A stretch of 64,000 nucleotides of DNA from Escherichia coli (GCF_001677475.2 NZ_CP015229.1), one strand, 5' to 3'. Numbered from the stretch's first letter, positions 1 to 48,487 are shown. A program made the numbers and translations. Notes: a model not told the origin generated them from the letters alone.

Positions 1-138
1 CCGTCATTTACTGCCATGCTAATGCAGAATTTCTCCGATAATTTATTGTTTATCATGATCGCCAGCGTATCGTTTATCTATTTGCTGATGCTGCTTCGCA
101 ACGCCGGTCATACGCCGAAACCCGTTGCTCACGTGTAA
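1..138 (+). CDS. ycaD: C-terminal end of an MFS-type transporter, 5' part outside the window
   Basis: Open frame from the window edge to TAA at 136-138; hydrophobic C-terminus; position upstream of ycaM matches K-12 order. Symbol is by synteny only. Confidence 0.45.
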
Positions 139-347
139 ATGAATTAACGCAGAGTGTGAACTTACTGTTTCACACTCTGCTTTTCTGTTTCTTCTCTCTG
201 ACTTGCTTTTTTCAAAATTTTATTCGTTTCAAAATAAAATGTGCAGCAGGTTATAATTTTGCATTTCGCTATTTCCGCACTTCTTATTTGCCGCGCATAA
301 TCCTTCGTTTTACAGATGCCCCTTTAATTTTGGCGAAGGATTTGTCT

Positions 348-1778
348 ATGGCTGGGAATGTTCAGGAAAAACAGCTGCGATGGTACAACATTGCGCTGAT
401 GTCTTTTATCACTGTCTGGGGTTTTGGCAACGTTGTTAATAACTACGCCAACCAGGGGCTGGTGGTTGTTTTTTCATGGGTGTTTATCTTTGCGCTCTAT
501 TTCACACCTTATGCGCTAATTGTTGGCCAGTTAGGCTCGACCTTCAAAGATGGGAAGGGCGGGGTCAGTACCTGGATTAAACACACGATGGGACCCGGAC
601 TGGCTTACCTCGCCGCGTGGACCTACTGGGTAGTGCATATTCCCTATCTGGCACAAAAACCCCAGGCAATACTGATTGCGCTCGGTTGGGCGATGAAAGG
701 CGACGGTTCGCTAATCAAAGAATATTCAGTCGTAGCGTTACAGGGGTTAACGCTGGTGCTGTTTATCTTCTTTATGTGGGTTGCTTCACGCGGTATGAAA
801 TCGCTGAAAATCGTCGGTTCTGTGGCAGGGATTGCGATGTTTGTTATGTCGCTCCTGTATGTGGCGATGGCGGTAACCGCGCCTGCGATTACTGAAGTGC
901 ATATTGCGACCACAAACATTACCTGGGAAACGTTCATTCCTCATATCGACTTTACCTACATTACCACTATTTCAATGCTGGTTTTCGCGGTTGGCGGAGC
1001 AGAGAAGATTTCTCCTTACGTTAATCAAACGCGCAACCCAGGAAAAGAATTTCCAAAAGGGATGTTATGCCTGGCGGTGATGGTTGCGGTTTGTGCCATT
1101 CTGGGCTCACTGGCGATGGGGATGATGTTTGACTCGCGTAATATCCCGGATGACTTAATGACTAACGGTCAGTATTACGCCTTTCAGAAGCTGGGCGAGT
1201 ATTACAACATGGGTAATACTTTAATGGTGATTTATGCCATTGCGAATACCCTGGGACAAGTAGCTGCGCTGGTATTCTCGATTGATGCACCGCTTAAAGT
1301 GTTATTAGGCGATGCCGACAGCAAATATATTCCAGCAAGTTTATGTCGTACCAACGCTTCTGGTACGCCCGTTAATGGCTATTTTCTGACCCTGGTGCTG
1401 GTGGCGATCCTGATAATGCTACCGACTCTCGGCATTGGTGATATGAACAATCTCTATAAATGGCTGTTGAATCTTAACTCGGTAGTGATGCCGCTGCGTT
1501 ATTTGTGGGTATTTGTTGCGTTTATTGCTGTCGTTCGCCTGGCGCAGAAATATAAACCAGAGTATGTCTTTATTCGTAATAAGCCGATGGCAATGACCGT
1601 CGGGATATGGTGTTTTGCCTTTACCGCTTTTGCATGCCTGACAGGAATTTTCCCTAAAATGGAAGCCTTCATTGCAGAGTGGACATTCCAATTGGCACTG
1701 AACATTACTACGCCATTTGTCCTCGTTGGACTGGGGCTGATATTCCCGCTGCTTGCACGTAAAACGAATACAAAATAG
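348..1778 (+). CDS. ycaM: APC-family amino acid transporter YcaM (476 aa)
   Basis: ORF-track 156..1778; ATG at 348 preceded by AAGGA (336-340); multi-pass membrane protein starting MAGNVQEKQLRWYN. Confidence 0.9.
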   Translation: MAGNVQEKQLRWYNIALMSFITVWGFGNVVNNYANQGLVVVFSWVFIFALYFTPYALIVGQLGSTFKDGKGGVSTWIKHTMGPGLAYLAAWTYWVVHIPYLAQKPQAILIALGWAMKGDGSLIKEYSVVALQGLTLVLFIFFMWVASRGMKSLKIVGSVAGIAMFVMSLLYVAMAVTAPAITEVHIATTNITWETFIPHIDFTYITTISMLVFAVGGAEKISPYVNQTRNPGKEFPKGMLCLAVMVAVCAILGSLAMGMMFDSRNIPDDLMTNGQYYAFQKLGEYYNMGNTLMVIYAIANTLGQVAALVFSIDAPLKVLLGDADSKYIPASLCRTNASGTPVNGYFLTLVLVAILIMLPTLGIGDMNNLYKWLLNLNSVVMPLRYLWVFVAFIAVVRLAQKYKPEYVFIRNKPMAMTVGIWCFAFTAFACLTGIFPKMEAFIAEWTFQLALNITTPFVLVGLGLIFPLLARKTNTK

Positions 1779-1786
1779 TCATCATG

Positions 1787-1802
1787 CCCCGGTTCGCCGG
1801 GG
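1787..1802 (+). terminator. GC hairpin just after the ycaM stop (CCCCGG-TTCG-CCGGGG)
   Basis: Perfect 6-bp inverted repeat with a 4-nt loop read directly from the sequence; no strong T-run follows, so it may be only a stabilising hairpin. Confidence 0.35.
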
Positions 1803-2875
1803 CTGTGATATCAAATAGACTAAAATTAGATCAGGCCTGATAAGGCAAAAGTTAAGTTTTTCTTAAGAGATGAAAGAAAATCAACGCTACCGTGATAATA
1901 CGAATTTTAGTTATCGGAGACCATTATTTTTAGATATGGTGATAGTTTTAATTATTGGTTATTTTGCAAGTTATTATTTTGGGCTCTGGAGTAAACTCTT
2001 GCGCATAGTAATAACATGATTTTTACGGCTAAATTTTCAACAAAGATTGGTAATGTAAACTCGTATTTTTTGATTTGCATCAATGAATTCGCACGTTGCT
2101 AATTATGGTTAAATTTGCTGAGAATGATTGCGGTTATTGTTTGGATATGCAGATGGTATATTGATTCACTGGCGTAATATTCTGTAAAAATTATATTTTA
2201 TAGTGTTTTAATCTGGCAAAAATCATCTCCCGACAGAATCTTCTCATGCCTGGTGTAGTTCACAGTCTTTTGTTTTAAAAATAAAATAGTGCTCTAATGT
2301 TGCATCTATTGTTTTATCGAGCGTGTGTTCCTGAAAATATTTATCTGTTAGGTTGATGGACAAATTACAGCCTGGGCAGTGAAATTTTCACGATCACTTT
2401 CTGACTAAATCTTACTTTAAGGTTACTGATTAATATATTTGGGCTAAGAGAGTCGTATTACACATGTCTCAAAAAAGATAAATAAACAGAAAGGATTACT
2501 CACAATAGATACTAATAACACTTTTGGATAGTTATAGAGTAGAAGCCACGACTCAGCAGGATGTAGTAGCTGTGTTGTTATAAGTTAATTTTTTCATGGC
2601 TAAATTATTTCGTTGAAAAATTAACGAAAGGCGGTAGCGTGGGTGAAAGATACAAAATGAGTGTTACATATAACAATATTACCTTGGTTAAAATAGAATG
2701 AATGATAATCACCTGTGGAAATTAAGAAAAAAGTAATCTTCTCATCATGATATATTTTTTATATGGAATAGTGAAATTAATAAAATCATAAAGAGGAGAG
2801 CAACATCGTCTAATATACAGAACGTTATACGATATGATATGAAGCTATTAATAACATTTTAGTCAGAATACCAGT
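1803..2875 (+). promoter_or_regulatory. About 1.1 kb AT-rich ORF-free leader upstream of the five-gene module; presumed promoter and silencing region
   Basis: No ORF of 60 aa or more on either strand; very AT-rich with A/T tracts; directly upstream of a co-directional gene array. Promoter positions not resolved. Confidence 0.3.
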
Positions 2876-5224
2876 ATGTATAGCATTACCGAAAAATTAA
2901 ACTCAAGATTTAACACTGCGGTTATATTAGCTGTTACTGTCTATATTGTCTTGTCATTTATTACCGCAATTGATTTCCATAAAAAAATAGCAGAAAACTC
3001 TGCACAGATTAACCTTATACTCATCAATAACAATTTGAATAATTTTTTTTCTAAAGTTGAAAAAGAGGCTGATGCATTAAAAGATGCAATCTATCTGTTA
3101 CATGATGAAGATGAAATAAAGCGAGCAGTCCTTCATCGCATGAAAAAAATAGACGCGGTTAATTTAGTAGGGATAATGCTCAATAATGGAAAATATCTTA
3201 GCTTTATTCGAACTGAGAATGGGGAGGTAAAATTTCTGGGGCAATCAGAACCCGGTAAACCTTTTATTGGTGACGATGGTGATATCAGCGATAACTACTT
3301 TAATCCGGAATCACGCCCATGGAATAAATTACCGAGGGGGACTTATTCAAAATGGTCACCATGGTATAATTGTTATGGTATTGCCGGAAAAAAATGTTTT
3401 TCGTTTTCACTACGACCATCCGAAGAAGAAAAAAATTCATTTGCTTTGAAGTTAATACATCTGGATGTTGATGAAAAATATTTCAGTAATTTTTTAAATA
3501 AACTGGGTGGTGATTCTGATATTTTATTCATGGAACAAAACAAAAGGATTATGGTGGGTAATGAAAAATCAATGTTACATCTTATTGTCCGTGATTTATC
3601 GGGAAGTTATAACATAAGCAATAATAGTGGCAACTATACAGACAATGTTATCTCACTCCCCTGGCTTCCTGATGTCAGATTCCATTATTTCCACTATCAA
3701 AAATCAGAAGATACAAACATCAATAAATATTTTACACTGATGTTTTTATGTGGCTTGGTTTGTTTCTGTTTATTATGGTATATCGTTGAAAAAATAACAA
3801 GAAAAATCAAAGGTGAATCCAGCAAACTGATAGAACATCTGAAAAAATTAGCTAATTCAGTATATCGCAACGACACAATTGATATTGTGCAAAATGACAG
3901 TGGTGAGATTGTTGAACTCAAAAAGATCATTAATAATATCAGCGATAAATACAAGGAGCGTATGGACCGATTACTTAATCTTGTGTCCTATGAACAAGGA
4001 AGTTGCTTTTATATTAATAAGGCTATTATTGAAACTAATAATAAAACCTATTTGGCAATTGGTATGCTTTGCATCTATGGATTAGAGTTTGTTGAAGCGG
4101 TATATGGAAATCAGAAATTTCATGAGATTTTTAATGATATAAAATCTAAGATATCACAAAAATATTCAAAATATTGTGATATCGTAAAAATCTCAACTGA
4201 AACATACTTGTTGCTATGTCACACTGATTGCGAAGAGTTCATCGAAAAATTATCGGTTTTAAACTTTCCTGAACATATATTTTGCATAAGAAATATATAT
4301 ATCCACAAGATTGCCATTTGCGAAAATTTTTCAGGGGAAAATGTATCGATTTATGAAAGGAAACTGAAACTGGCATTAACAGCTATGCGGGAAAATAAAG
4401 AATCTGAATTTATTTTTTATGATGACATCAAAGTCCATGAACTTGATCAAAAGGTCTGGGTGGCAGGAAATATAAAAAAAGCGATTGCGAGTAATGAGCT
4501 TTATTTAGTATATCAACCGATTGTTGATATGGATAATAATAGGGTTGTAGGCGCAGAGGCGTTATGTCGCTGGTTGTCCTGCGAAAATGGGGTAATACCG
4601 CCATCAATTTTTGTACCTGTTGCTGAAGAAATAGGATTAATTAAAGAACTGGGTGATTTTGTTCTCGAAACAGCTATTAGCGAATTTGGGGTGTTTAGTT
4701 GTGAATATGAGGTTGCTAACGATTTTCTCCTGCATATCAATGTTTCTCCCTGGCAATTAAATGAATTTGACTTCCACACTCGTGTTCTTACTTTAATTAA
4801 TGCATTTGGTGTAAATGTTGAACAAATCTGCCTGGAGATCACCGAATCAGCAGTAAAAGATATAAATGATAGCTTTTACAATAATATAAATATTTTAAAA
4901 GAAAATGGTATCAAGATTTCCCTTGATGATTTCGGAAGTGGATTAGCTGACCTGAAAAAACTTTATAAAGTAAGACCTGATAGCATTAAAATTGATTCAG
5001 AGTTTACCTCTGGTATTTTCGATGAAACTAACAAGGTTGTATATTTTATATCCAATCTTGCTCGTGAAGAAAATATGCCGGTAATAGCTGAAGGTGTTGA
5101 AACTGAAAGTCAGGCTAGAGAGTTGCAAAAATTAGGATTTTCTCATGTTCAGGGATACTTATACCAGAAACCGTTACCGTTTTCAGAATGGCATATAGAC
5201 AACAAACCGAAAAAAAGAAAATAA
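2876..5224 (+). CDS. Membrane-anchored c-di-GMP phosphodiesterase: TM, periplasmic domain, TM, degenerate GGDEF-like linker, EAL domain (782 aa)
   Basis: EAL-domain signatures present: GAEALCRW, LEITES, DDFGSG, IKIDSEF, EGVETESQ, QGY. Two hydrophobic segments flank a ~250 aa region. No GGDEF/GGEEF motif in the linker. Confidence 0.8.
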   Translation: MYSITEKLNSRFNTAVILAVTVYIVLSFITAIDFHKKIAENSAQINLILINNNLNNFFSKVEKEADALKDAIYLLHDEDEIKRAVLHRMKKIDAVNLVGIMLNNGKYLSFIRTENGEVKFLGQSEPGKPFIGDDGDISDNYFNPESRPWNKLPRGTYSKWSPWYNCYGIAGKKCFSFSLRPSEEEKNSFALKLIHLDVDEKYFSNFLNKLGGDSDILFMEQNKRIMVGNEKSMLHLIVRDLSGSYNISNNSGNYTDNVISLPWLPDVRFHYFHYQKSEDTNINKYFTLMFLCGLVCFCLLWYIVEKITRKIKGESSKLIEHLKKLANSVYRNDTIDIVQNDSGEIVELKKIINNISDKYKERMDRLLNLVSYEQGSCFYINKAIIETNNKTYLAIGMLCIYGLEFVEAVYGNQKFHEIFNDIKSKISQKYSKYCDIVKISTETYLLLCHTDCEEFIEKLSVLNFPEHIFCIRNIYIHKIAICENFSGENVSIYERKLKLALTAMRENKESEFIFYDDIKVHELDQKVWVAGNIKKAIASNELYLVYQPIVDMDNNRVVGAEALCRWLSCENGVIPPSIFVPVAEEIGLIKELGDFVLETAISEFGVFSCEYEVANDFLLHINVSPWQLNEFDFHTRVLTLINAFGVNVEQICLEITESAVKDINDSFYNNINILKENGIKISLDDFGSGLADLKKLYKVRPDSIKIDSEFTSGIFDETNKVVYFISNLAREENMPVIAEGVETESQARELQKLGFSHVQGYLYQKPLPFSEWHIDNKPKKRK

Positions 5225-5228
5225 AGCA

Positions 5229-6569
5229 ATGTTCAAATATAAAAAAAAGGCGGCAGTGATCTGTTTTTTGTATTTTTTGTGCGTCGCTGTAGTAACTTGT
5301 TATTTGTACACCATTCATGTTAAAGGCCGTATAAATTCGGTGAAGGTATCTATTGTAGATAGTGGGCTTGCAATAGCTAATGTTTCTGAGTATCGCCGCT
5401 CAGTATCTAATAATATATTTTATGAACTTGAGGTTTCGCCAGAAGAGTTGTTAAAAAAAATACGCAATAGCTTTGCTGGCTATGAAAACCCTGGATATTT
5501 GTATGATCTCGGTCCTTATATGATTAGCGATGGTAAATGTATCAAAGTCACAACGAAAGGAGATAATTTTTGTGACGACATAGTTTCCTCTATTAGGGTA
5601 ATTAATGAATTTGAAAGAGGCATTATTAGCTTAAAAAATAAGTGCTATGTTTATTATGCTCATCCCATTGCAAAACGTACAAGTTTGATATCAGTGGTAG
5701 ATCCTGAACGTTATTTATCTTTGATAAGAAATCAATCAGGGGAACGAGAAGATATCTATGTATCATTTTATGATATTAATGATAATGAAAAGAAAATCGC
5801 AGGTGATGATTTTTTGATAAATGATGCAGTATTTGAGATGTCAGCTATCACTCTGTCGTATTCTTATCTTCCAGAAATGATGTTTATTGTTGCCTATAAA
5901 AAAAGTAAATATCTATATATATGTGCGTTTTTCGTTTTTGCATCGGCAATATCTGCAGTCATAATGTATGTTTATTATGTTAAATTATTGCGTGATATTA
6001 TAAATAAGGGTAGATTGGAAAAAGAATCTATATTGTCGAATCATCAATATGATTTACGTGGAGAAAATCTATTCTTTAATACGGAAGAGATTAATGCAAT
6101 TCGAGAGATATATGACTTTGGCACTTGTGATGCATTAACCAGGGCTTCTGGTCGCCGGAGTTTTGATAAAGAAATCAAGATACTGAGAAAAAATTTTGGC
6201 TACCTGTGTCTATTTGATGTGGATAAATTTAAAACCATTAATGATAAGTTTGGTCATTTATTTGGTGATGAAGTACTCATCAAACTTGTTAATATCATTA
6301 AAGAAGAGTTACCCCGTCGTGAAGGGGAAATATACCGGTTTGGCGGTGATGAGTTTGCTATTATTTATTATGAGAAAGATAAAAATAAGCTATCAAGAAT
6401 TTTGCACAGAGTTGTTCATTTCGCCATTGGTGGGTTAAATTGTAGTTGCAGTATAGGTGTTGCCAGCACAGATGAGTGCATGAATAACATTGAACGGTTG
6501 AAATTGCTGGCAGATGAACGGTTATATAAAAGTAAGCAAAATGGCCGAGCACAGATAACGTGGTGTTGA
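5229..6569 (+). CDS. Membrane diguanylate cyclase: TM, periplasmic domain, TM, GGDEF domain (446 aa)
   Basis: Intact GGDEF motifs: DALT, FDVDKFKTINDKFGH, GDEVL, RFGGDEF. Position -9 to -6 before GGDEF reads RREG rather than RxxD, so the inhibitory I-site looks degenerate. Four bp after the preceding gene. Confidence 0.85.
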   Translation: MFKYKKKAAVICFLYFLCVAVVTCYLYTIHVKGRINSVKVSIVDSGLAIANVSEYRRSVSNNIFYELEVSPEELLKKIRNSFAGYENPGYLYDLGPYMISDGKCIKVTTKGDNFCDDIVSSIRVINEFERGIISLKNKCYVYYAHPIAKRTSLISVVDPERYLSLIRNQSGEREDIYVSFYDINDNEKKIAGDDFLINDAVFEMSAITLSYSYLPEMMFIVAYKKSKYLYICAFFVFASAISAVIMYVYYVKLLRDIINKGRLEKESILSNHQYDLRGENLFFNTEEINAIREIYDFGTCDALTRASGRRSFDKEIKILRKNFGYLCLFDVDKFKTINDKFGHLFGDEVLIKLVNIIKEELPRREGEIYRFGGDEFAIIYYEKDKNKLSRILHRVVHFAIGGLNCSCSIGVASTDECMNNIERLKLLADERLYKSKQNGRAQITWC

Positions 6570-6653
6570 TATTTTAATTTGCATGGCATTGGTCATCGAT
6601 GTTTACAAAAATCACACAGTTCAAGTTATATTATTAATGAATCGTTAAGTGCA

Positions 6654-8768
6654 ATGCTCATAAAAAATAAAGTAATATTAAACAAAATCCTTTTGGTTGT
6701 TGCTATACTGCTATGTTTTGTTTTTTTATCAATTGTTGAACAGCCCCTTGGATTTTATCAACAAACATTATTTTCAATTATTATTTGTATCGCTGCTATC
6801 TTCCTTAATTTTCTCAAAGGAAGGATAATTACTCTGATTCTAATGGGTGTTGGAATACTCATATCATCCCGATATCTATGGTGGCGTTACTCTTCTTCAG
6901 TAATCCTGGATGAATTTCCAGACTGTTTATTTTCAGTCACGCTATTAGTTGCTGAGACGTATGCATGGTTTGTTTTATTACTTGGTTACTTTCAGGTTTG
7001 CTTCCCGCTGAACCGAGAAAGTATACCCTTACCAGAGAATAAAGAAGAATGGCCCGTTGTTGATATATTAATCCCCACATATAACGAACCCTTTACAGTC
7101 GTTAAGAATACAGTTTATGGTGCGTTGGCCTTAGACTGGCCAACGGATAAATTAAATATCTGGCTCCTTGATGATGGCGCCAGGGACGAGTTCAGGAAAT
7201 TCGCGAACGAGTTAGGTATTTACTATGTCGCAAGAGAAACACATGAACATGCTAAGGCCGGAAATATAAATAATGCGCTTAAAATAGCTAATGGCGAATT
7301 TGTTGCTATTTTCGATTGCGATCATATACCCTCGGTTTCTTTTTTAAAGAAAACGATGGGCTGGTTTATCGCCGATAAAAAATTATCGATGTTGCAAACA
7401 CCACATCATTTTTTTTCCCCCGACCCTTTTGAGCGAAATTTGGGGCAGTTTCGGCAAAAGCCAAATGAAGGACACCTTTTTTATGGGTTAATCCAGAATG
7501 GTACGGATACATGGAATGCTTCATTTTTTTGTGGTTCATGTGCAATCATCCGTAGATCTGCTCTGGATGAGGTTGGAGGCATTGCAGTCGAAACAGTAAC
7601 AGAAGATGCGCATACGTCGTTACGCTTGCATCGTGCAGGTTATAGCTCTGCGTATCTTCGCTATCCTCTGGCTGCCGGGCTAGCCACCGAAACATTGTCT
7701 GCTCATATTGGACAACGGATTCGGTGGGCTCGAGGCATGATTCAAATCTTGCGTATTGACAATCCATTATTGGGCAAGGGGCTGACATTATCACAGCGCC
7801 TTTGCTATCTCAGCAGCATGATGCATTTTTTATCAGGTGTGCCACGCCTGATTTTCTTGTTCGCACCGTTATGTCCTATTTTCTTTTCGGTCAATCTGAT
7901 CGATGCATCAGTTGCAGATATTATGTCTTATGTTTTACCTTATCTATTTGTTATTATTTTAACTAATTCAAGAGTACAAGGTAAATACAGACATTCATTC
8001 TGGAATGAGATTTATGAAATGGTTCTGGCCTGGTATATTACGCTACCAACGCTTGTAGCTTTACTTGCGCCAGCAAAAGGTCGTTTTAACGTTACGGCCA
8101 AAGGGGGACTGATAAAAAATAAGTTTGTTGACTGGCGAATTTCCTATCCCTATCTTATTTTTGCTATTTTAAATGTAATCGGGCTGATAATAGGTGTTAT
8201 TAATGTTTATAGTTTGCAAGGGCATATTGCCATCTTGAATTTGTTTTGTTTAATCTGGTTGTTTTATAACGCAATTATTATTGGCGCAACTTTGGCTGTT
8301 TCTATTGAACAAAAGCAGGTGCGTTTTTCTCCCCGTATTGATGTTTCTTTCAAGGGCGTTATACAACTGGATGATGGACGGCGCTATCCTTGTTCTGTTC
8401 TTGATTTTTCCGAAGGAGGATTAGGTGTAATCCTTGATAATATCTCCGACGTAAAAGATATGCTTAAAGCACAGCAATTGTCTCTTTATCTGGATGATAG
8501 CAACGGGAAATGTGATATTCCGGTAGAAATAGTTCATGCTTACAATAATAAAATTGGTCTGAAGATTATGCCAATGAGTTATGAACAAAGTGTTAATTAT
8601 GTAAGAGCAACGTTTTCTCGTGATTCATTATGGCAAGAGTGGAATAATAAAATTAGACGGGACAATATTCTAAAGAGTTTTTTTGAAATATGTTTCATCT
8701 CTCTGAAAGGTTATTGCAATATGGTTTTTTATATTCTGCGGACACTGAAAAGCAGTTCCAAAAGTTAG
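6654..8768 (+). CDS. BcsA-family processive beta-glycosyltransferase with C-terminal PilZ domain (cellulose-synthase-like catalytic subunit)
   Basis: N-terminal TM helices; GT2 motifs DILIPTYNEP, LLDDGARDEF, FDCDH, TEDAHTS, FFCGSCAIIRR, QRIRWARG; PilZ motifs RFSPR and DFSEGGLG. ORF-track frame opens at a TTG at 6579; ATG at 6654 chosen as start, uncertain. Confidence 0.82.
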   Translation: MLIKNKVILNKILLVVAILLCFVFLSIVEQPLGFYQQTLFSIIICIAAIFLNFLKGRIITLILMGVGILISSRYLWWRYSSSVILDEFPDCLFSVTLLVAETYAWFVLLLGYFQVCFPLNRESIPLPENKEEWPVVDILIPTYNEPFTVVKNTVYGALALDWPTDKLNIWLLDDGARDEFRKFANELGIYYVARETHEHAKAGNINNALKIANGEFVAIFDCDHIPSVSFLKKTMGWFIADKKLSMLQTPHHFFSPDPFERNLGQFRQKPNEGHLFYGLIQNGTDTWNASFFCGSCAIIRRSALDEVGGIAVETVTEDAHTSLRLHRAGYSSAYLRYPLAAGLATETLSAHIGQRIRWARGMIQILRIDNPLLGKGLTLSQRLCYLSSMMHFLSGVPRLIFLFAPLCPIFFSVNLIDASVADIMSYVLPYLFVIILTNSRVQGKYRHSFWNEIYEMVLAWYITLPTLVALLAPAKGRFNVTAKGGLIKNKFVDWRISYPYLIFAILNVIGLIIGVINVYSLQGHIAILNLFCLIWLFYNAIIIGATLAVSIEQKQVRFSPRIDVSFKGVIQLDDGRRYPCSVLDFSEGGLGVILDNISDVKDMLKAQQLSLYLDDSNGKCDIPVEIVHAYNNKIGLKIMPMSYEQSVNYVRATFSRDSLWQEWNNKIRRDNILKSFFEICFISLKGYCNMVFYILRTLKSSSKS

Positions 8769-8833
8769 TTCTAATTTCTGACTGCTAATTAAATATATTG
8801 TTTGTGTTTATTATGGTTGTTGAATTTTTTAAA

Positions 8834-11134
8834 ATGGAAAGAAAATTTTTGAGATTAAGTGCTGCGATAATTGGCTTGGGGTTATTATGTTTTTACCAGG
8901 CAAATACAGCATCGGCTACAGATACAGTAACCAGTAAGTCTTCCTCTGGAGAAGTATTACCATCTATCCAGAAGACAAATATCTCTGCTTATGAGAAAGA
9001 GTCGTCTCGCCATTTTAAACTCCCATTTACACAAATCGCACCAGCTCCAGGAAACATAGTCCTGAATGGCGTTAACCCACAGGGGCAAATTGAGTTTGGT
9101 ATGCGTAGCGATGAAATAGTATCAGAAGCAAAACTAAAACTTGAATACACTACATCACCGTCGCTGATCCCTGTCCAGTCACAGCTTAAGGTCTATCTTA
9201 ATGACGAGTTGATGGGGGTATTGCCGATTACCAAAGAACAACTGGGGAAGAAAACGCTGGCGGAAATAACTCTTAACCCATTGTATTTTTCTGATTTTAA
9301 TCGCTTGCGCCTCGAATTAATTAGTCACTACCAGAGCGCCTGTGAAAACCCGACCAGCAGCAATTTGTGGCTTGATATTGGACGTACCAGTGAACTTGAA
9401 CTGGTATTTCAGAGACTTAATCTGAAAAATGATCTTTCATATTTTCCTGTACCGTTTTTTGACCCGCGAGATAACCGCACTAATACATTGCCGATGGTTT
9501 TTGCAGGTACTCCTGAGACTGGTTTGCAGCAGGCATCAGCTATTGTCGCTTCGTGGTTTGGTGCGCAATCTGGCTGGCGTGGTCACCGATTTCCGGTTTT
9601 CTATAACCAGTTACCGGAAAGTAATGCAGTGGTCTTTGCCACTAACAATAGACGCCCGGACTTTCTGCGCGAGCATCCGTTGGTGAATGCGCCTGTTATT
9701 AAAATGATCAGTCATCCACAAAATCCTTTTATCAAATTGCTGGTACTTTTGGGCCGCGATGACAAAGATTTATTACAGGCGGCAAAAGGCCTTGCACAGG
9801 GAAATATACTTTTTCGCGGCGATAGTGTGATCGTAAATGAAGTGACGCCGTTACTGCCGCGTAAACCTTATGATGCGCCAAACTGGGTACGCACTGACCG
9901 TCCTGTAACTTTCGCAGAGCTTAAAAATTATGAAGGGCAGTTACAGGCAAGTGGCCTGGAGTCTGCGGCAATTAATGTTTCATTTAATTTGCCACCTGAT
10001 CTTTTTCTATTGCGTAATCGTGGGGTTGATATGAAGATTAACTATCGCTATACCACGCCAACGATAGGTGGTTCACGCATGGATGTCAGCCTTAATAACC
10101 AGTACCTTGAATCTTTCCGGCTAAGTCCGCAATCTGCTACCGATAGATTGTTGTTACGTTTACCGTTATTGCAAGAATTGTTGGATGGTAATAATGGAAT
10201 TACCATTCCTGCGCTGACGTTGGGGGCGCTTAATCAATTGCGATTTAATTTTGAGTACATTAATACAATGCCGCGTTCTGATGCTGATAGCTGTATTATT
10301 TCCAGGCCTCTAAAAAATCATGCGGTTATTGCAGATGATTCCACTATCGATTTTTCAAAGTACCATCACTTTATCGCAATGCCAGATTTACGCGCTTTTG
10401 CCAGCTCAGGCTTTCCATTTAGCCGCATGGCCGATCTATCAGAAACGGTTGTGGTTATGCCTGAAAATCCTGGTACAACGCAAGTTGAAACATTATTAAA
10501 TACCCTTGGACTGATTGGTGCTCAAACTGGATTTCCGGCAATTAATCTGACAATTACTGATGATATAGGTTCTGTCCAGGGTAAGGATTCAGATATTCTG
10601 CTTATAGGAACACTTCCGCAAGAATTTGCAGATAAACAGCAAATTAATCTGCTCATTGAGGCAACAACGAGTTGGGTAAAAAGCCCAATGCGGAACACTG
10701 ATTACGCAAAAATTATGGCAGATAAAAACGATCAAAAACCTGAAATACAAACAACTATAAATTCCCCATTGCCAATGGCGGCGATAGTTGGTTTTCAGTC
10801 CCCATATCATGCCCAACGTAGCGTAATTGCTTTAATGTCCGAGGGATCACGCGGCGATACGCTACTCAACAATGCGTTAATTAATAGTACAAAACGCGGC
10901 AATATTTTTGGTTCAGTCGCGGTTATTCGCGAATCTGGCGTCAATAGTTTACAGGTTGGAGATACTTATTACGTTGGGCATCTCCCCTGGATTGAACGAG
11001 TGCAATATGTGTTAGCCAGACACCCCATTCTACTGGCAGTCCTGGCAACTCTCAGTGTGGTGCTATTGGCGTGGGTAGTATGGCGTCTGTTACGTAACAT
11101 TAGTCGCCGTCGTCTGAACCCTCATCAACAGTAA
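8834..11134 (+). CDS. BcsB-like periplasmic subunit with signal peptide and C-terminal membrane anchor
   Basis: ORF-track 8798..11134 opens at a TTG; ATG at 8834 gives a classical signal peptide (MERKFLRLSAAIIGLGLLCFYQANTASA). About 770 aa with a C-terminal hydrophobic helix followed by RRRLNP, the typical BcsB size and topology. Confidence 0.8.
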   Translation: MERKFLRLSAAIIGLGLLCFYQANTASATDTVTSKSSSGEVLPSIQKTNISAYEKESSRHFKLPFTQIAPAPGNIVLNGVNPQGQIEFGMRSDEIVSEAKLKLEYTTSPSLIPVQSQLKVYLNDELMGVLPITKEQLGKKTLAEITLNPLYFSDFNRLRLELISHYQSACENPTSSNLWLDIGRTSELELVFQRLNLKNDLSYFPVPFFDPRDNRTNTLPMVFAGTPETGLQQASAIVASWFGAQSGWRGHRFPVFYNQLPESNAVVFATNNRRPDFLREHPLVNAPVIKMISHPQNPFIKLLVLLGRDDKDLLQAAKGLAQGNILFRGDSVIVNEVTPLLPRKPYDAPNWVRTDRPVTFAELKNYEGQLQASGLESAAINVSFNLPPDLFLLRNRGVDMKINYRYTTPTIGGSRMDVSLNNQYLESFRLSPQSATDRLLLRLPLLQELLDGNNGITIPALTLGALNQLRFNFEYINTMPRSDADSCIISRPLKNHAVIADDSTIDFSKYHHFIAMPDLRAFASSGFPFSRMADLSETVVVMPENPGTTQVETLLNTLGLIGAQTGFPAINLTITDDIGSVQGKDSDILLIGTLPQEFADKQQINLLIEATTSWVKSPMRNTDYAKIMADKNDQKPEIQTTINSPLPMAAIVGFQSPYHAQRSVIALMSEGSRGDTLLNNALINSTKRGNIFGSVAVIRESGVNSLQVGDTYYVGHLPWIERVQYVLARHPILLAVLATLSVVLLAWVVWRLLRNISRRRLNPHQQ

Positions 11135-11246
11135 TTCATCATCATTTCTATTTTGCGGCTCCATTCTGTCCTGACTTTATACAGGCAGGGAGCTGCGCCC
11201 GTTCTGTTTTTAATAAAAAGTGAGTTAACACCTGATTGAGGCAGGC

Positions 11247-14200
11247 ATGTACAAATTCACCCTAAATTTACTCACAATATCCCTTGGTTTGGCGGTAATG
11301 TCGATGGCGAAAGCCACACCAACTGTACACAAGCTGTTAATGGCGCAGATTCGGTTAGGCGAAGACATTCATCGTGAAGATCTGGTCGAACAGTCGCTTT
11401 ATCGTCTTGAATTGGCGGAACCTGATAATCCAGATGTCGTTGCGGCGCGTTTTCGCTATCTGCTGCGTAAGGGGGATATTGAAGGTGCGCAAAAACAACT
11501 TGCCAGACTTTCCCTGTTCGCTCCTGATTCAAAAATATATAAAGCATCGCGCACGGCCATGCGACTTTCTTCGCCTGAGGGGCGTCAGGCACTGCAAATG
11601 GCACGCTTACAAGCTATCTCCGGGCGACATAAAGAGGCTATCGACAGTTACGACAAGCTATTTAACGGGGCACCGCCAGATATCGAAATGGCGCTGGAAT
11701 ACTGGGGGGCAATGACGCAAATTTCCTCCCGTCGCAACGAAGCGATTCGTCAGTTGAAAATACTTAATATTGATAATCCTGACTCTGGTGCCATATTTGG
11801 GGCGCTGGGGCAGGCGTATTCCCAGAATGGCGATCGCGCTAATGCGGTGGCGAATCTGGAAAAAGCCCTCGCACTGGATCCGCACAGCAGCAACAACGAC
11901 AAATGGAACAGTCTGCTGAAGGTGAATCGCTACTGGCTGGCGATCCAGCAGGGCGATGCTGCGCTGAAAGCCAATAATCCTGACCGCGCAGAGCGTCTGT
12001 TCCAGCAGGCGCGCAATGTCGATAACGCCGACAGCTATGCGGTGCTGGGGCTGGGCGATGTGGCGATGGCGCGCAAAGATTACCCCGCCGCCGAACGTTA
12101 TTATCAGCAGACGCTGCGTATGGACAGCGGCAACACCAACGCCGTGCGCGGGCTGGCGAATCTTTATCGCCAGCAGTCGCCGGAAAAAGCCGAAGCGTTT
12201 ATTGCCTCGCTCTCTGCCAGCCAGCGGCGCAGCGTTGATGACATCGAACGCAGCCTGCAAAACACGCGTTTATCACAGCAGGCAGAGGCACTGGAAAATC
12301 AGGGTAAATGGGCGCAGGCGGCAGCACTTCAGCGCCAGCGACTGGCGCTCGATCCCGGCAGTGTGTGGATTACTTACCGGCTTTCGCAGGATCTCTGGCA
12401 GGCCGGACAACGCAGCCAGGCCGATACGTTAATGCGCCATCTGGCGCAGCAGAAGCCGAACGACCCGGAGCAGGTTTACGCTTACGGGCTGTATCTCTCT
12501 GGTCATGACCAGGACAGAGCGGCGCTGGCGCATATCAACAGCCTGCCGCGCGCGCAATGGAACAGCAATATTCAGGAGCTGGTTAATCGACTGCAAAGCG
12601 ATCAGGTGCTGGAAACCGCTAATCGCCTGCGAGAAAGCGGCAAAGAAGCTGAAGCGGAAGCGATGCTGCGCCAACAACCACCTTCCACGCGTATTGATCT
12701 CACGCTGGCTGACTGGGCGCAACAACGACGTGATTATACCGCCGCCCGCGCTGCATATCAGAATGTCCTGATGCGGGAGCCAACTAACGCCGATGCCATT
12801 CTTGGTCTGACGGAAGTGGATATTGCTGCCGGTGACAAAGCGGCAGCACGTAGCCAGCTGGCGAAACTGCCTGCCACCGATAACGCGTCGCTGAACACTC
12901 AGCGGCGCGTGGCGCTGGCACAGGCGCAGCTTGGCGATACCGCAGCGGCGCAGCAGACGTTTAATAAGTTGATCCCGCAGGCAAAATCTCAGCCGCCGTC
13001 GATGGAAAGCGCGATGGTGCTGCGCGACGGTGCGAAGTTTGAAGCGCAGGCGGGCGATCCAAAGCAGGCGCTGGAAACCTACAAAGACGCCATGGTCGCA
13101 TCCGGTGTGACTACGACGCGTCCGCAGGATAACGACACCTTTACCCGACTGACCCGTAACGATGAGAAAGATGACTGGCTGAAGCGCGGTGTGCGCAGCG
13201 ACGCGGCAGATCTCTATCGTCAGCAGGATCTTAACGTCACCCTTGAGCACGACTACTGGGGATCGAGTGGCACCGGTGGTTACTCCGACCTGAAAGCGCA
13301 CACTACCATGTTGCAGGTGGATGCTCCGTATTCTGACGGGAGGATGTTCTTTCGCAGTGATTTCGTCAATATGAACGTCGGCAGTTTCTCCACTAATGCC
13401 GATGGCAAATGGGATGACAACTGGGGCACCTGTACATTACAGGACTGTAGTGGCAACCGCAGCCAGTCGGACTCCGGTGCCAGCGTGGCGGTCGGCTGGC
13501 GAAATGACGTCTGGAGCTGGGATATCGGTACCACGCCGATGGGCTTCAACGTGGTGGATGTGGTCGGCGGCATCAGTTACAGCGATGATATCGGGCCGCT
13601 GGGTTACACCGTTAACGCCCACCGTCGGCCCATCTCCAGTTCTTTGCTGGCCTTTGGTGGGCAAAAAGACTCTCCGGGCAATACCGGGAAAAAATGGGGT
13701 GGCGTGCGTGCCGACGGCGTGGGGCTAAGCCTGAGCTACGATAAAGGTGAAGCAAACGGCGTCTGGGCATCGCTTAGCGGTGACCAGTTAACCGGTAAAA
13801 ATGTCGAAGATAACTGGCGCGTGCGCTGGATGACGGGCTATTACTATAAGGTCATTAACCAGAACAATCGCCGCGTCACAATCGGCCTGAACAACATGAT
13901 CTGGCATTACGACAAAGATCTGAGTGGCTACTCACTCGGTCAGGGCGGTTACTACAGTCCGCAGGAATACCTGTCGTTTGCCATACCGGTGATGTGGCGG
14001 GAGCGCACGGAAAACTGGTCGTGGGAGCTGGGTGCATCTGGCTCGTGGTCGCATTCGCGCACCAAAACCATGCCGCGTTATCCGCTGATGAACCTGATCC
14101 CGACGGACTGGAAAGAGGATGCCGCCAGCCAGACCAACGACGGCGGCAGCAGTCAGGGCTTTGGCTACACGGCGCGGGCGTTACTTGAGCGTCGCGTCAC

Positions 14201-14354
14201 GTCCAACTGGTTTGTCGGCACGGCGATTGATATCCAGCAGGCGAAAGATTATGCGCCAAGCCATTTCCTGCTCTACGTGCGGTATTCCGCCGCCGGATGG
14301 CAGGGCGACATGGATTTACCGCCGCAGCCGCTGATACCTTACGCCGACTGGTAA
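11247..14354 (+). CDS. BcsC-like export component: signal peptide, TPR repeats, C-terminal outer-membrane beta-barrel (1035 aa)
   Basis: Signal peptide MYKFTLNLLTISLGLAVMSMAKA; TPR-like repeats; Gly/Tyr/Trp-rich C-terminal region ending in aromatic residues; GAGG before the ATG. GC and codon usage change abruptly near 11.8 kb. Confidence 0.8.
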   Translation: MYKFTLNLLTISLGLAVMSMAKATPTVHKLLMAQIRLGEDIHREDLVEQSLYRLELAEPDNPDVVAARFRYLLRKGDIEGAQKQLARLSLFAPDSKIYKASRTAMRLSSPEGRQALQMARLQAISGRHKEAIDSYDKLFNGAPPDIEMALEYWGAMTQISSRRNEAIRQLKILNIDNPDSGAIFGALGQAYSQNGDRANAVANLEKALALDPHSSNNDKWNSLLKVNRYWLAIQQGDAALKANNPDRAERLFQQARNVDNADSYAVLGLGDVAMARKDYPAAERYYQQTLRMDSGNTNAVRGLANLYRQQSPEKAEAFIASLSASQRRSVDDIERSLQNTRLSQQAEALENQGKWAQAAALQRQRLALDPGSVWITYRLSQDLWQAGQRSQADTLMRHLAQQKPNDPEQVYAYGLYLSGHDQDRAALAHINSLPRAQWNSNIQELVNRLQSDQVLETANRLRESGKEAEAEAMLRQQPPSTRIDLTLADWAQQRRDYTAARAAYQNVLMREPTNADAILGLTEVDIAAGDKAAARSQLAKLPATDNASLNTQRRVALAQAQLGDTAAAQQTFNKLIPQAKSQPPSMESAMVLRDGAKFEAQAGDPKQALETYKDAMVASGVTTTRPQDNDTFTRLTRNDEKDDWLKRGVRSDAADLYRQQDLNVTLEHDYWGSSGTGGYSDLKAHTTMLQVDAPYSDGRMFFRSDFVNMNVGSFSTNADGKWDDNWGTCTLQDCSGNRSQSDSGASVAVGWRNDVWSWDIGTTPMGFNVVDVVGGISYSDDIGPLGYTVNAHRRPISSSLLAFGGQKDSPGNTGKKWGGVRADGVGLSLSYDKGEANGVWASLSGDQLTGKNVEDNWRVRWMTGYYYKVINQNNRRVTIGLNNMIWHYDKDLSGYSLGQGGYYSPQEYLSFAIPVMWRERTENWSWELGASGSWSHSRTKTMPRYPLMNLIPTDWKEDAASQTNDGGSSQGFGYTARALLERRVTSNWFVGTAIDIQQAKDYAPSHFLLYVRYSAAGWQGDMDLPPQPLIPYADW

Positions 14355-14395
14355 TGAGGTAGAATCAGAAGGTTAAAACTCGGAAATTAAATCCA

Positions 14396-14438
14396 GTAAA
14401 TCAGCGTCGAGCATGTTCTTAACGCTGATTTACTTTTT
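14396..14438. terminator. Hairpin plus T-run between the convergent BcsC-like gene and pflA
   Basis: GTAAATCAGCGT … ACGCTGATTTAC inverted repeat followed by TTTTT, read directly. Confidence 0.5.
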
Positions 14439-14488
14439 ACTACTAAAGGAAGGGGTGGCAGGTCGGAATTCAGCCTGCACATGATGTT

Positions 14489-15229
14489 TTAGAACATCAC
14501 TTTATGACCATATTGCTCAAGAATCCCTTTCACTCGCTCCATGGTTTCTTTTTTCGGTGGTTTCACACCGTCGAGTTTGTACTCTTCGCCCATCGCCACC
14601 CACTTATGTTTGCCTAACTCATGGTAGGGGAGGAGCTCGATTTTTTCGACGTTACCCATATCGCGAGTAAATTCACCGAGGCGATGAGCTGAATCGTCAT
14701 CGTCAGACCAGCCAGGTACTACGACATAACGTATCCAGACTTTCACATTTTTGTTCGCCAGATATTTAGCAAACTCGAGTGTACGATGGTTGGAAACGCC
14801 TACCAGATTCTGGTGGATTTCGTCGTTCATCTGTTTGAGATCGAGCATTACCAGGTCGGTCACTTCCAGAAGTTCATCAATTACTGGATCGTAACGACGA
14901 ACAAAACCGTTAGTGTCCAGACAGGTATGAATGCCTTCTTTTTTGCAGGCGCGGAACCAGTCGCGAACGAACTCGGCTTGCAGGATTGCTTCACCACCGG
15001 ATGCGGTAACGCCGCCGCCGGAAGCGTTCATAAAGTGGCGATAGGTCACCACTTCCTTCATTAAATCTTCAACGGTAACTTCTTTACCGCCATGCGTATC
15101 CCAGGTGTCGCGGTTATGACAATACAGGCAGCGCATCAGGCAGCCCTGGAAAAAGGTGATAAAGCGAATACCCGGGCCGTCTACGGTTCCACAGGATTCA
15201 AAGGAGTGAATGCGACCAATAACTGACAT
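14489..15229 (-). CDS. pflA: Pyruvate formate-lyase activating enzyme (radical SAM)
   Basis: Protein [20 protein letters not shown] … [10 protein letters not shown] … YGHKVMF; ORF-track frame extends 9 codons upstream, start set at the conserved Met. Confidence 0.95.
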
Positions 15230-15420
15230 TGCGGTGTTTCTCCAGATGTGGCCCATCTGAGGCCGTGTTGGTGCGCAGCTCGAAGGCTACGTCGAGTCTG
15301 TTTTGGCAGTCACCTTAAAGTATAGATAGCTGACAAAAAAGGCTCTCGTGCTAAAAAAGGCCCCACTTTCGTGGAGCCTTTATTGTACGCTTTTTACTGT
15401 ACGATTTCAGTCAAATCTAA

Positions 15421-48454: not shown

Positions 48455-48487
48455 AAAAAGCCCGCTTTTCAGCGGGCTTCATTGTTT
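48455..48487. terminator. Bidirectional terminator between gloC and aspC
   Basis: AAGCCCGC-TTTTCA-GCGGGCTT flanked by A-run and T-run. Confidence 0.5.

Follow-up and report, generated by a model that had tools for sequence, protein, structure and literature searches.

Organisation of the locus

The window analysed here, a 64,000-nucleotide (nt) stretch of the Escherichia coli genome (GCF_001677475.2, NZ_CP015229.1), contains two adjacent genes encoding a sensor phosphodiesterase (PDE) and a sensor diguanylate cyclase (DGC). These enzymes respectively hydrolyse and synthesise cyclic di-GMP (c-di-GMP), and their genes lie upstream of those for an accessory cellulose synthase. The first gene (2876-5224, + strand) encodes a 782-amino-acid (aa) protein resembling PdeI (YliE) of E. 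coli K-12, with Pfam matches to the CHASE9 and EAL families. Its predicted architecture comprises a transmembrane segment (TM1), a CHASE9/double-Cache (dCache)-like periplasmic domain, a second transmembrane segment (TM2), a helical linker, a degenerate GGDEF domain, and a C-terminal EAL domain. The second gene (5229-6569, + strand) encodes a 446-aa protein resembling DgcI (YliF), with Pfam matches to GAPES2 and GGDEF, in which TM1 is followed by a GAPES2 periplasmic domain, TM2, a linker, and a GGDEF domain. The two proteins correspond to the deposited E. coli entries ANO88098.1 and ANO88099.1, which RefSeq labels 'CHASE9 sensor domain-containing protein' and 'GGDEF domain-containing protein', respectively.

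The pair is the start of a series of five same-strand genes: PDE, DGC, bcsA, bcsB, and bcsC. bcsA (6654-8768, + strand) encodes the 704-aa catalytic subunit of the accessory cellulose synthase, identified with NCBIfam and Pfam models and bearing a C-terminal PilZ domain; its open reading frame (ORF) opens at 6579, with 6654 being the RefSeq-equivalent start. It is followed by bcsB (8834-11134, + strand), whose product scores 1189 bits against NCBIfam NF008325 (cut-off 922) and is 66% identical to K-12 BcsB, and by bcsC (11247-14354, + strand), a mosaic gene as judged by identity comparison with native BcsC. All five ORFs are unbroken in the window. The DGC gene starts 4 nt past the PDE stop codon, and the subsequent gaps measure 84, 65, and 112 nt. 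None of the terminator candidates in the operon is convincing. The five genes are therefore likely to be co-transcribed, and the 4-nt gap suggests that PDE and DGC are translationally coupled.

Catalytic domains

The EAL domain of the PDE (4466-5221, + strand) matches the Pfam family PF00563 (E-value 8.5e-65) over aa 532-766, corresponding to model positions 3-236 of 236. Its closest relative in the PDB is the EAL domain of DosP (E-value 5.5e-40), with which the catalytic residues align. The set is complete, consisting of the EAL motif at 561-563 (E561), R565, N622, E654/E657, the DDFG motif at 684-687 (D684/D685), K705/D707, E739/E742, and Q759. All of these catalytic or metal-binding residues are invariant in a 9-sequence family alignment.

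The GGDEF domain of the DGC (6126-6566, + strand) matches PF00990 (E-value 1.8e-24) and TIGR00254 (90.9 bits, cut-off 37.4). The signature RFGGDEF lies at aa 370-376, with GGDEF itself at 372-376, and the A-site is intact: residues D330, K335, N338, D347, R370, G372-F376, K436, and R440 are invariant in the family. Invariance of the catalytic residues extends across seven to nine family members ranging from 30 to 94% identity. The initial annotation of this DNA, made from sequence, had described both sets of catalytic motifs as intact, a description borne out by these alignments. With complete catalytic residue sets, both enzymes look active. The same annotation had drawn attention to RREG in place of the RxxD motif of the I-site in the cyclase, predicting that product inhibition would be lost. 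The I-site is indeed absent, with RREG at aa 363-366, but the substitution is not special to this DGC. The position is unconserved, reading LSKG, VDKG, or GFNF in relatives, and RxxD is missing from every member examined. The predicted lack of product inhibition would therefore be a trait of the family rather than a peculiarity of this enzyme.

Selection on the module was assessed by comparing the window with the alleles of strains N3 (94% identical) and MS 21-1 (85% identical). The ratio of nonsynonymous to synonymous substitution rates (Ka/Ks) falls between 0.05 and 0.25 for every gene and subdomain, at Ks values of 0.1-0.3 against N3 and 0.5-0.9 against MS 21-1. Against these two alleles Ka/Ks is 0.09-0.15 for the PDE and 0.13-0.14 for the DGC. 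Taken by themselves, the subdomains (Ka/Ks 0.05-0.24) are all under purifying selection, the sensor loops and the predicted dead GGDEF domain of the PDE among them.

Periplasmic sensor domains

A Kyte-Doolittle hydropathy scan shows each protein to have just two hydrophobic segments. Those of the PDE, at aa 14-32 and 286-304, enclose a loop of about 253 aa (aa 33-285; 2972-3730, + strand), and those of the DGC, at aa 8-26 and 230-248, one of about 203 aa (aa 27-229; 5307-5915, + strand). This agrees with the two-segment topology and the periplasmic loops of about 250 and 190 aa proposed earlier. Because the GGDEF and EAL output domains have to lie in the cytoplasm, the loops are placed outside it. 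Each loop has a cysteine pair that is invariant across the family (C166/C174 in the PDE, C104/C115 in the DGC), which fits an oxidising periplasmic location, and the DGC loop has in addition an invariant EYR motif. It is possible that TM1 of the PDE is removed as a signal peptide, the topology being unchanged either way; YliE is drawn with a signal peptide in a preprint from the Römling laboratory (bioRxiv 10.1101/2025.05.09.653004).

The loops had initially been assigned to no nameable family, an assessment that Pfam profile searches overturn. The PDE loop matches CHASE9 (PF17153, E-value 7.1e-42) at aa 35-150 over the full model (1-116), a stretch that the hydrophobic segments enclose. In the DGC loop the match is to GAPES2 (PF17156, E-value 5.5e-41), at aa 26-232 and likewise over the full model (1-204). 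E. coli PdeI (YliE) and DgcI (YliF) are the proteins on which the CHASE9 and GAPES2 families, respectively, are based. hhalign finds no relationship between the GAPES2 and CHASE9 loops (probability 0.6%), and a GAPES2 profile searched against PDB sequences gives no match with an E-value under 0.27, and so no link to solved structures.

The family alignments are shallow (7-8 sequences). For the complete PDE loop, AlphaFold2 gave from an 8-sequence alignment a model with a pLDDT of 87 and a pTM of 0.83. Its Foldseek matches in the PDB are mostly dCache domains, among them TlpC, Mlp24/37, CtaA, and KinD, with E-values of 4e-7 to 1e-4 and TM-scores of 0.5-0.76. The periplasmic domain of the PDE is thus predicted to adopt a double-Cache fold, with two PDC modules carried on a long N-terminal helix. 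The long helix and two beta-rich modules are features it would have in common with these dCache domains, whereas sequence identity to them is only 8-16% and the invariant cysteine pair is specific to the PDE family. No Pfam dCache sequence match was found in the loop. The label 'CHASE9-xCache' used in the Römling preprint agrees with the double-Cache model (bioRxiv 10.1101/2025.05.09.653004).

A predicted degenerate GGDEF domain in the PDE

TM2 and the EAL domain of the PDE are joined by a cytoplasmic linker of about 226 aa (aa 305-530; 3788-4465, + strand). It is predicted to begin with two helices that may be HAMP-like, with a degenerate GGDEF domain after them. Pfam detects neither GGDEF (at E-values up to 10) nor HAMP in the linker. 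Aligning the linker family to a GGDEF alignment with hhalign gives a weak match (probability 2.6%, E-value 0.018) in a register that places STETY (aa 440-444) where GGDEF would be, with the metal- and GTP-binding positions seemingly all lost.

As sequence alone cannot establish a degenerate GGDEF domain, a structure model was used. The AlphaFold2 model of aa 305-531 (mean pLDDT 70, core 75-88) comprises two N-terminal helices at model residues 2-22 and 39-65 (protein aa 306-326 and 343-369; pLDDT 48-75), followed by a beta-alpha domain. Among the 50 PDB matches listed by Foldseek, 48 are GGDEF-domain structures, the two exceptions being GTP cyclohydrolase III and soluble guanylate cyclase. The best match is SadC (E-value 6e-7), with target-normalised TM-scores reaching 0.68; others are SiaD, PleD, WspR, DosP, and the S-helix-GGDEF-EAL structure of LapD. 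At the level of prediction, this supports assignment of the linker as a degenerate, catalytically dead GGDEF-fold domain, as the initial annotation had suspected. The linker has a Ka/Ks of 0.08-0.10, a constraint equal to that on the catalytic domains. By analogy with PdeK, LapD, and DosP, the dead GGDEF domain is probably a regulatory or dimerisation module.

Relationship to PdeI and DgcI

The PDE is 40% identical to K-12 PdeI (YliE, b0833) over 775 aa, both proteins being 782 aa long, and the DGC is 42% identical to K-12 DgcI (YliF, b0834) over 445 aa (446 and 442 aa in full). The two pairs have a common gene order, PDE before DGC, and a common architecture, in which CHASE9 is followed at a distance by EAL and GAPES2 is joined to GGDEF. 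In both, the I-site is absent while the A-site and EAL motifs are intact (PMC3484386, Table 1); Spurbeck et al. came to matching conclusions on the motifs of YliE and YliF (PMC3484386). The intergenic gap is 4 nt in the window and 7 nt in K-12. The pairs differ in location, that of the window lying between ycaM and pflA and that of K-12 between gsiD and rimO. bcsABC follow the former, whereas an opposite-strand rimO follows the latter, and GC content is 0.33 in the window pair compared to 0.42-0.44 in K-12. Because the locus differs, the PDE and DGC of the window are regarded as paralogues of PdeI and DgcI, not orthologues.

The K-12 pair itself (6980-10664 in the K-12 stretch used for comparison) is lower in GC than its neighbours gsiD and rimO (0.53). 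In midpoint-rooted neighbour-joining trees, it groups among the bcs-linked lineages described below.

The accessory cellulose synthase

The product of the window bcsA scores above the cut-offs of two NCBIfam models for cellulose synthase (NF008558, 1015 bits against 992; TIGR03030, 844 against 699). It is 52% identical to K-12 BcsA and does not have the N-terminal extension of the native protein. Its PilZ domain is recognised by Pfam (E-value 1.2e-10) and retains both expected motifs, RFSPR for RxxxR and DFSEGG for DxSxxG. The pair had been described initially as adjacent to a PilZ-gated synthase, and bcsA is indeed directly downstream, a linkage kept in three deep lineages of the pair.

The mosaic structure of bcsC is seen in its two parts. 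The first 190 codons or so are of island type, encoding a sequence with 55-75% aa identity to native BcsC at a GC content of 0.45-0.53. The remainder (GC about 0.58) encodes a protein 92-100% identical to aa 323-1157 of native E. coli BcsC, with a 122-aa deletion in the TPR region, and reaches 99-100% DNA identity to native bcsC. The equivalent module of Escherichia fergusonii has no bcsC. The near-native remainder together with the absence of bcsC from the E. fergusonii module suggests that the E. coli island gained the 3' part of bcsC by recombination with the native gene.

Genomic island

Local BLAST aligns the window collinearly with K-12 (96-98% identity) except at 1778-14488, where 12.7 kb between ycaM and pflA replace ycaN-ycaK. 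A ycaM-like permease gene (156-1778) forms the left flank, and pflA/pflB, on the strand opposite to the five-gene operon, form the other. GC content rises from 0.33 in the PDE and DGC genes to 0.38 in bcsA, 0.43 in bcsB, and 0.58 in most of bcsC, compared to 0.49 for the whole window. From this gradient and the break in K-12 collinearity, the PDE/DGC pair heads a genomic island of 12.7 kb. Homology to K-12 stops at 1777, and the left end of the island (1778-2875) is AT-rich and non-coding (GC 0.32), presumably containing the promoter or regulatory region of the operon. No ORF of at least 50 aa was found in this 1.1-kb leader, and in an Rfam scan of window positions 1-15300 neither a riboswitch nor any other RNA appeared ahead of the operon.

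The island is only 94-95% identical to its best E. coli match, which raised the idea that the window comes from an Escherichia other than E. coli. That idea was rejected, because pflB is 99% identical to that of E. coli strains N3 and MS 21-1, the window outside the island is 96-98% identical to K-12, and the exact PDE and DGC sequences are deposited under E. coli. The island alleles at the ycaN-ycaK site differ from that of the window by a Ks of 0.2 (N3) and 0.7 (MS 21-1). Ks is about 0.03 in the flanking pflB, and pflA is intermediate against MS 21-1 (0.43). This pattern points to an old island that has probably spread among lineages by way of homologous recombination in its flanking regions.

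Distribution and lineages of the pair

An exhaustive search of 1.84e9 representative proteins with aa 1-530 of the PDE returned only 22 matches, mostly frameshifted fragments, and no ordinary GGDEF proteins. With so few matches, the PDE family is evidently very narrow. A word-indexed homologue search with the PDE gave 11 matches only, dominated by generic EAL proteins. Named relatives come almost entirely from Escherichia, namely E. coli, E. fergusonii, E. ruysiae, E. marmotae, and cryptic-clade isolates.

The pair occurs in five deep lineages that are 30-45% identical to each other. In three of the five, bcsA and bcsB lie immediately downstream. One of these comprises the window type and a 68%-identical relative in E. 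fergusonii, the latter at a different chromosomal site. The second is an IncHI1B plasmid type, found on pPSS-08-2_2, in which IS1 lies between the DGC gene and bcsA, and the third is known from E. coli contigs (L006/L007). The tree of the PDE is congruent with that of the DGC, which indicates that the pair is inherited as a unit. Between the modules of the window, E. fergusonii, the plasmid, and L006, BcsA identity is 71-74%; for the PDE/DGC pair of the window it drops to 37-38% against the plasmid and L006 counterparts. Either the sensor pair evolves much faster than the synthase, or differing alleles of the pair have been joined to one synthase.

A fourth lineage is represented by a pair termed L005 (GCA_004793115.1, SRWC01000005.1, 45-8218), consisting of a PDE and a GAPES2-GGDEF protein at about 39-40% identity. 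It adjoins genes for a UvrD-like helicase, a TraI_2 relaxase, and an integrase, suggesting that this pair is carried on an integrative mobile element. L005-type relatives in one 90% cluster include a few copies from Salmonella enterica.

Congruence of the two trees also fits another reading of the pair. The PDE and DGC genes are always adjacent, either overlapping or separated by 4-7 nt, and the conserved dead GGDEF domain of the PDE could dock onto the GGDEF domain of the DGC. One partner might then be the working enzyme and the other mainly a sensor or trigger acting through a PDE-DGC heterocomplex. We regard this as very unlikely, because no lineage shows a change in either set of catalytic residues, contrary to what a dispensable activity would lead one to expect.

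Proposed role of the pair

We consider it likely that this pair of enzymes forms the inner-membrane signalling head of a horizontally acquired, nearly Escherichia-only accessory cellulose operon, PDE-DGC-bcsA-bcsB-bcsC, its members being paralogues of PdeI and DgcI. One or two extracytoplasmic small-molecule cues would shift the balance between synthesis of c-di-GMP by the DGC and its hydrolysis by the PDE. The resulting c-di-GMP would bind the PilZ domain of the co-encoded BcsA, switching on cellulose synthesis. In the most speculative step, the pair would act as a local source and sink beside the synthase, like DgcC and PdeK at the native BcsA-BcsB. Such local signalling, which the initial annotation had read from the adjacency of pair and synthase, is plausible on the basis of gene adjacency and synteny.

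Several observations weigh against this proposal. Site counts in a promoter and terminator scan equal the shuffled expectation, leaving the scan uninformative on transcription units. The remaining two of the five lineages, those of the K-12 core pair and of L005, have no bcs genes next to them. Among 5,426 complete E. coli genomes only nine carry the island, and in these nine carriers the module is damaged in six and intact in three. bcsB is interrupted by an insertion sequence (IS3 or IS1) in GF43 and MSB1_4I and probably also in two further carriers, where matches are split likewise. In AF14 a frameshift divides the PDE gene into a CHASE9 half and an EAL half, and the annotation of OZ546911 shows such a split too. 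Finally, no DgcI can be detected in K-12 grown under laboratory conditions, and its overproduction is toxic (PMC5635695); the PdeI/DgcI family may therefore be largely silent.

The carrier damage and the undetectable core DgcI would both fit a cryptic, silenced, or decaying island, leaving the pair at present without a physiological role in the strain. The GC content of 0.32-0.33 and the AT-rich upstream region, typical of xenogeneic silencing targets, point the same way. We nonetheless judge this improbable. The intact reading frames of the window argue against decay, as does the low Ka/Ks between diverged alleles, and the E. fergusonii PDE seeds a cluster of 380 sequences at 90% identity, nearly all of them from E. 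fergusonii.

The lineages that have no bcs genes raise another alternative, namely that the pair serves the global c-di-GMP pool or other targets, and that its adjacency to bcsABC reflects co-mobilisation with no physical coupling. The IS1 separating DGC from bcsA on plasmids would be consistent with this, and the difference in identity between pair and BcsA suggests independent histories. Deletion of yliF in strain CFT073 altered adherence (PMC3484386), which speaks for the same alternative. Recurrence of the order pair-bcsA-bcsB in most of the deep lineages and the tight gaps of 4 and 84 nt in the window argue otherwise. Modelling of the native cellulose synthase moreover indicates that the global pool is too low for BcsA activation (PMC7397504). 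Service to a global pool is thus rather unlikely, and a dedicated signalling head of the cellulose operon is the reading we prefer.

A more far-reaching version of that reading is offered only tentatively, and we rather doubt it. The pair would be an ancient, co-inherited periplasmic-ligand switch acting as dedicated controller of a mobile, Escherichia-confined bcsA-bcsB, with K-12 pdeI-dgcI as its orphaned remnant. The divergence among pairs (30-45% identity) relative to the synthase (71-74%) would then reflect diversification of the cue.

Comparison with known systems

The native cellulose synthase of E. coli offers a point of comparison. PdeK (YhjK/HmsP) is a TM-HAMP-GGDEF(degenerate)-EAL protein whose periplasmic loop is of another kind than that of the window PDE. 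DgcC (YaiC/AdrA) has a MASE2 domain and is encoded elsewhere, in a CsgD-dependent manner. Both enzymes of the window pair, in contrast, are encoded within the bcs operon. In each system a membrane-bound DGC and PDE are associated with a PilZ-gated BcsA, and the PDE gene lies beside bcs genes (PMC7397504). Direct interaction among DgcC, PdeK, and BcsB has been demonstrated (PMC7397504), whereas the window pair is linked to its synthase by gene adjacency and conserved synteny.

A preprint from the Römling laboratory of May 2025 (bioRxiv 10.1101/2025.05.09.653004) reports accessory bcsABC clusters (bcsA2 and bcsA3) that are restricted to Escherichia and located on plasmids or at alternative chromosomal sites. 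GGDEF and EAL genes encoding whole-length homologues of YliF and YliE adjoin those clusters, so the pair-bcs arrangement was already known bioinformatically. As in the window, the bcs2 and bcs3 clusters consist of bcsABC only, and their BcsA has no N-terminal extension and keeps its PilZ domain. The accessible text of the preprint does not name the ycaM/pflA site with its replacement of ycaN-ycaK. Nor does it describe a mosaic bcsC, BcsC there clustering concordantly with BcsA, or report the divergence between sensor pair and BcsA and the decay of carriers by insertion sequences and frameshifts. As far as that text goes, the structural support for a double-Cache and a dead GGDEF domain in this allele and the purifying-selection figures are likewise additions.

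The pair is real, ordinary in kind, and already described. With the association in a preprint and the genes routinely annotated, its remaining value is experimental rather than one of discovery. It is a compact natural system for dedicated source and sink control of one exopolysaccharide synthase by c-di-GMP, and it hints at a purpose for the long-uncharacterised PdeI/DgcI (YliE/YliF) family. Periplasmic ligands, if found, would explain when some Escherichia deploy a second pathway, for unmodified cellulose.

Outside the island, the window has a small indel relative to K-12 at about 48459-48469, where some 160 bp of the K-12 gloC-aspC intergenic region are missing.

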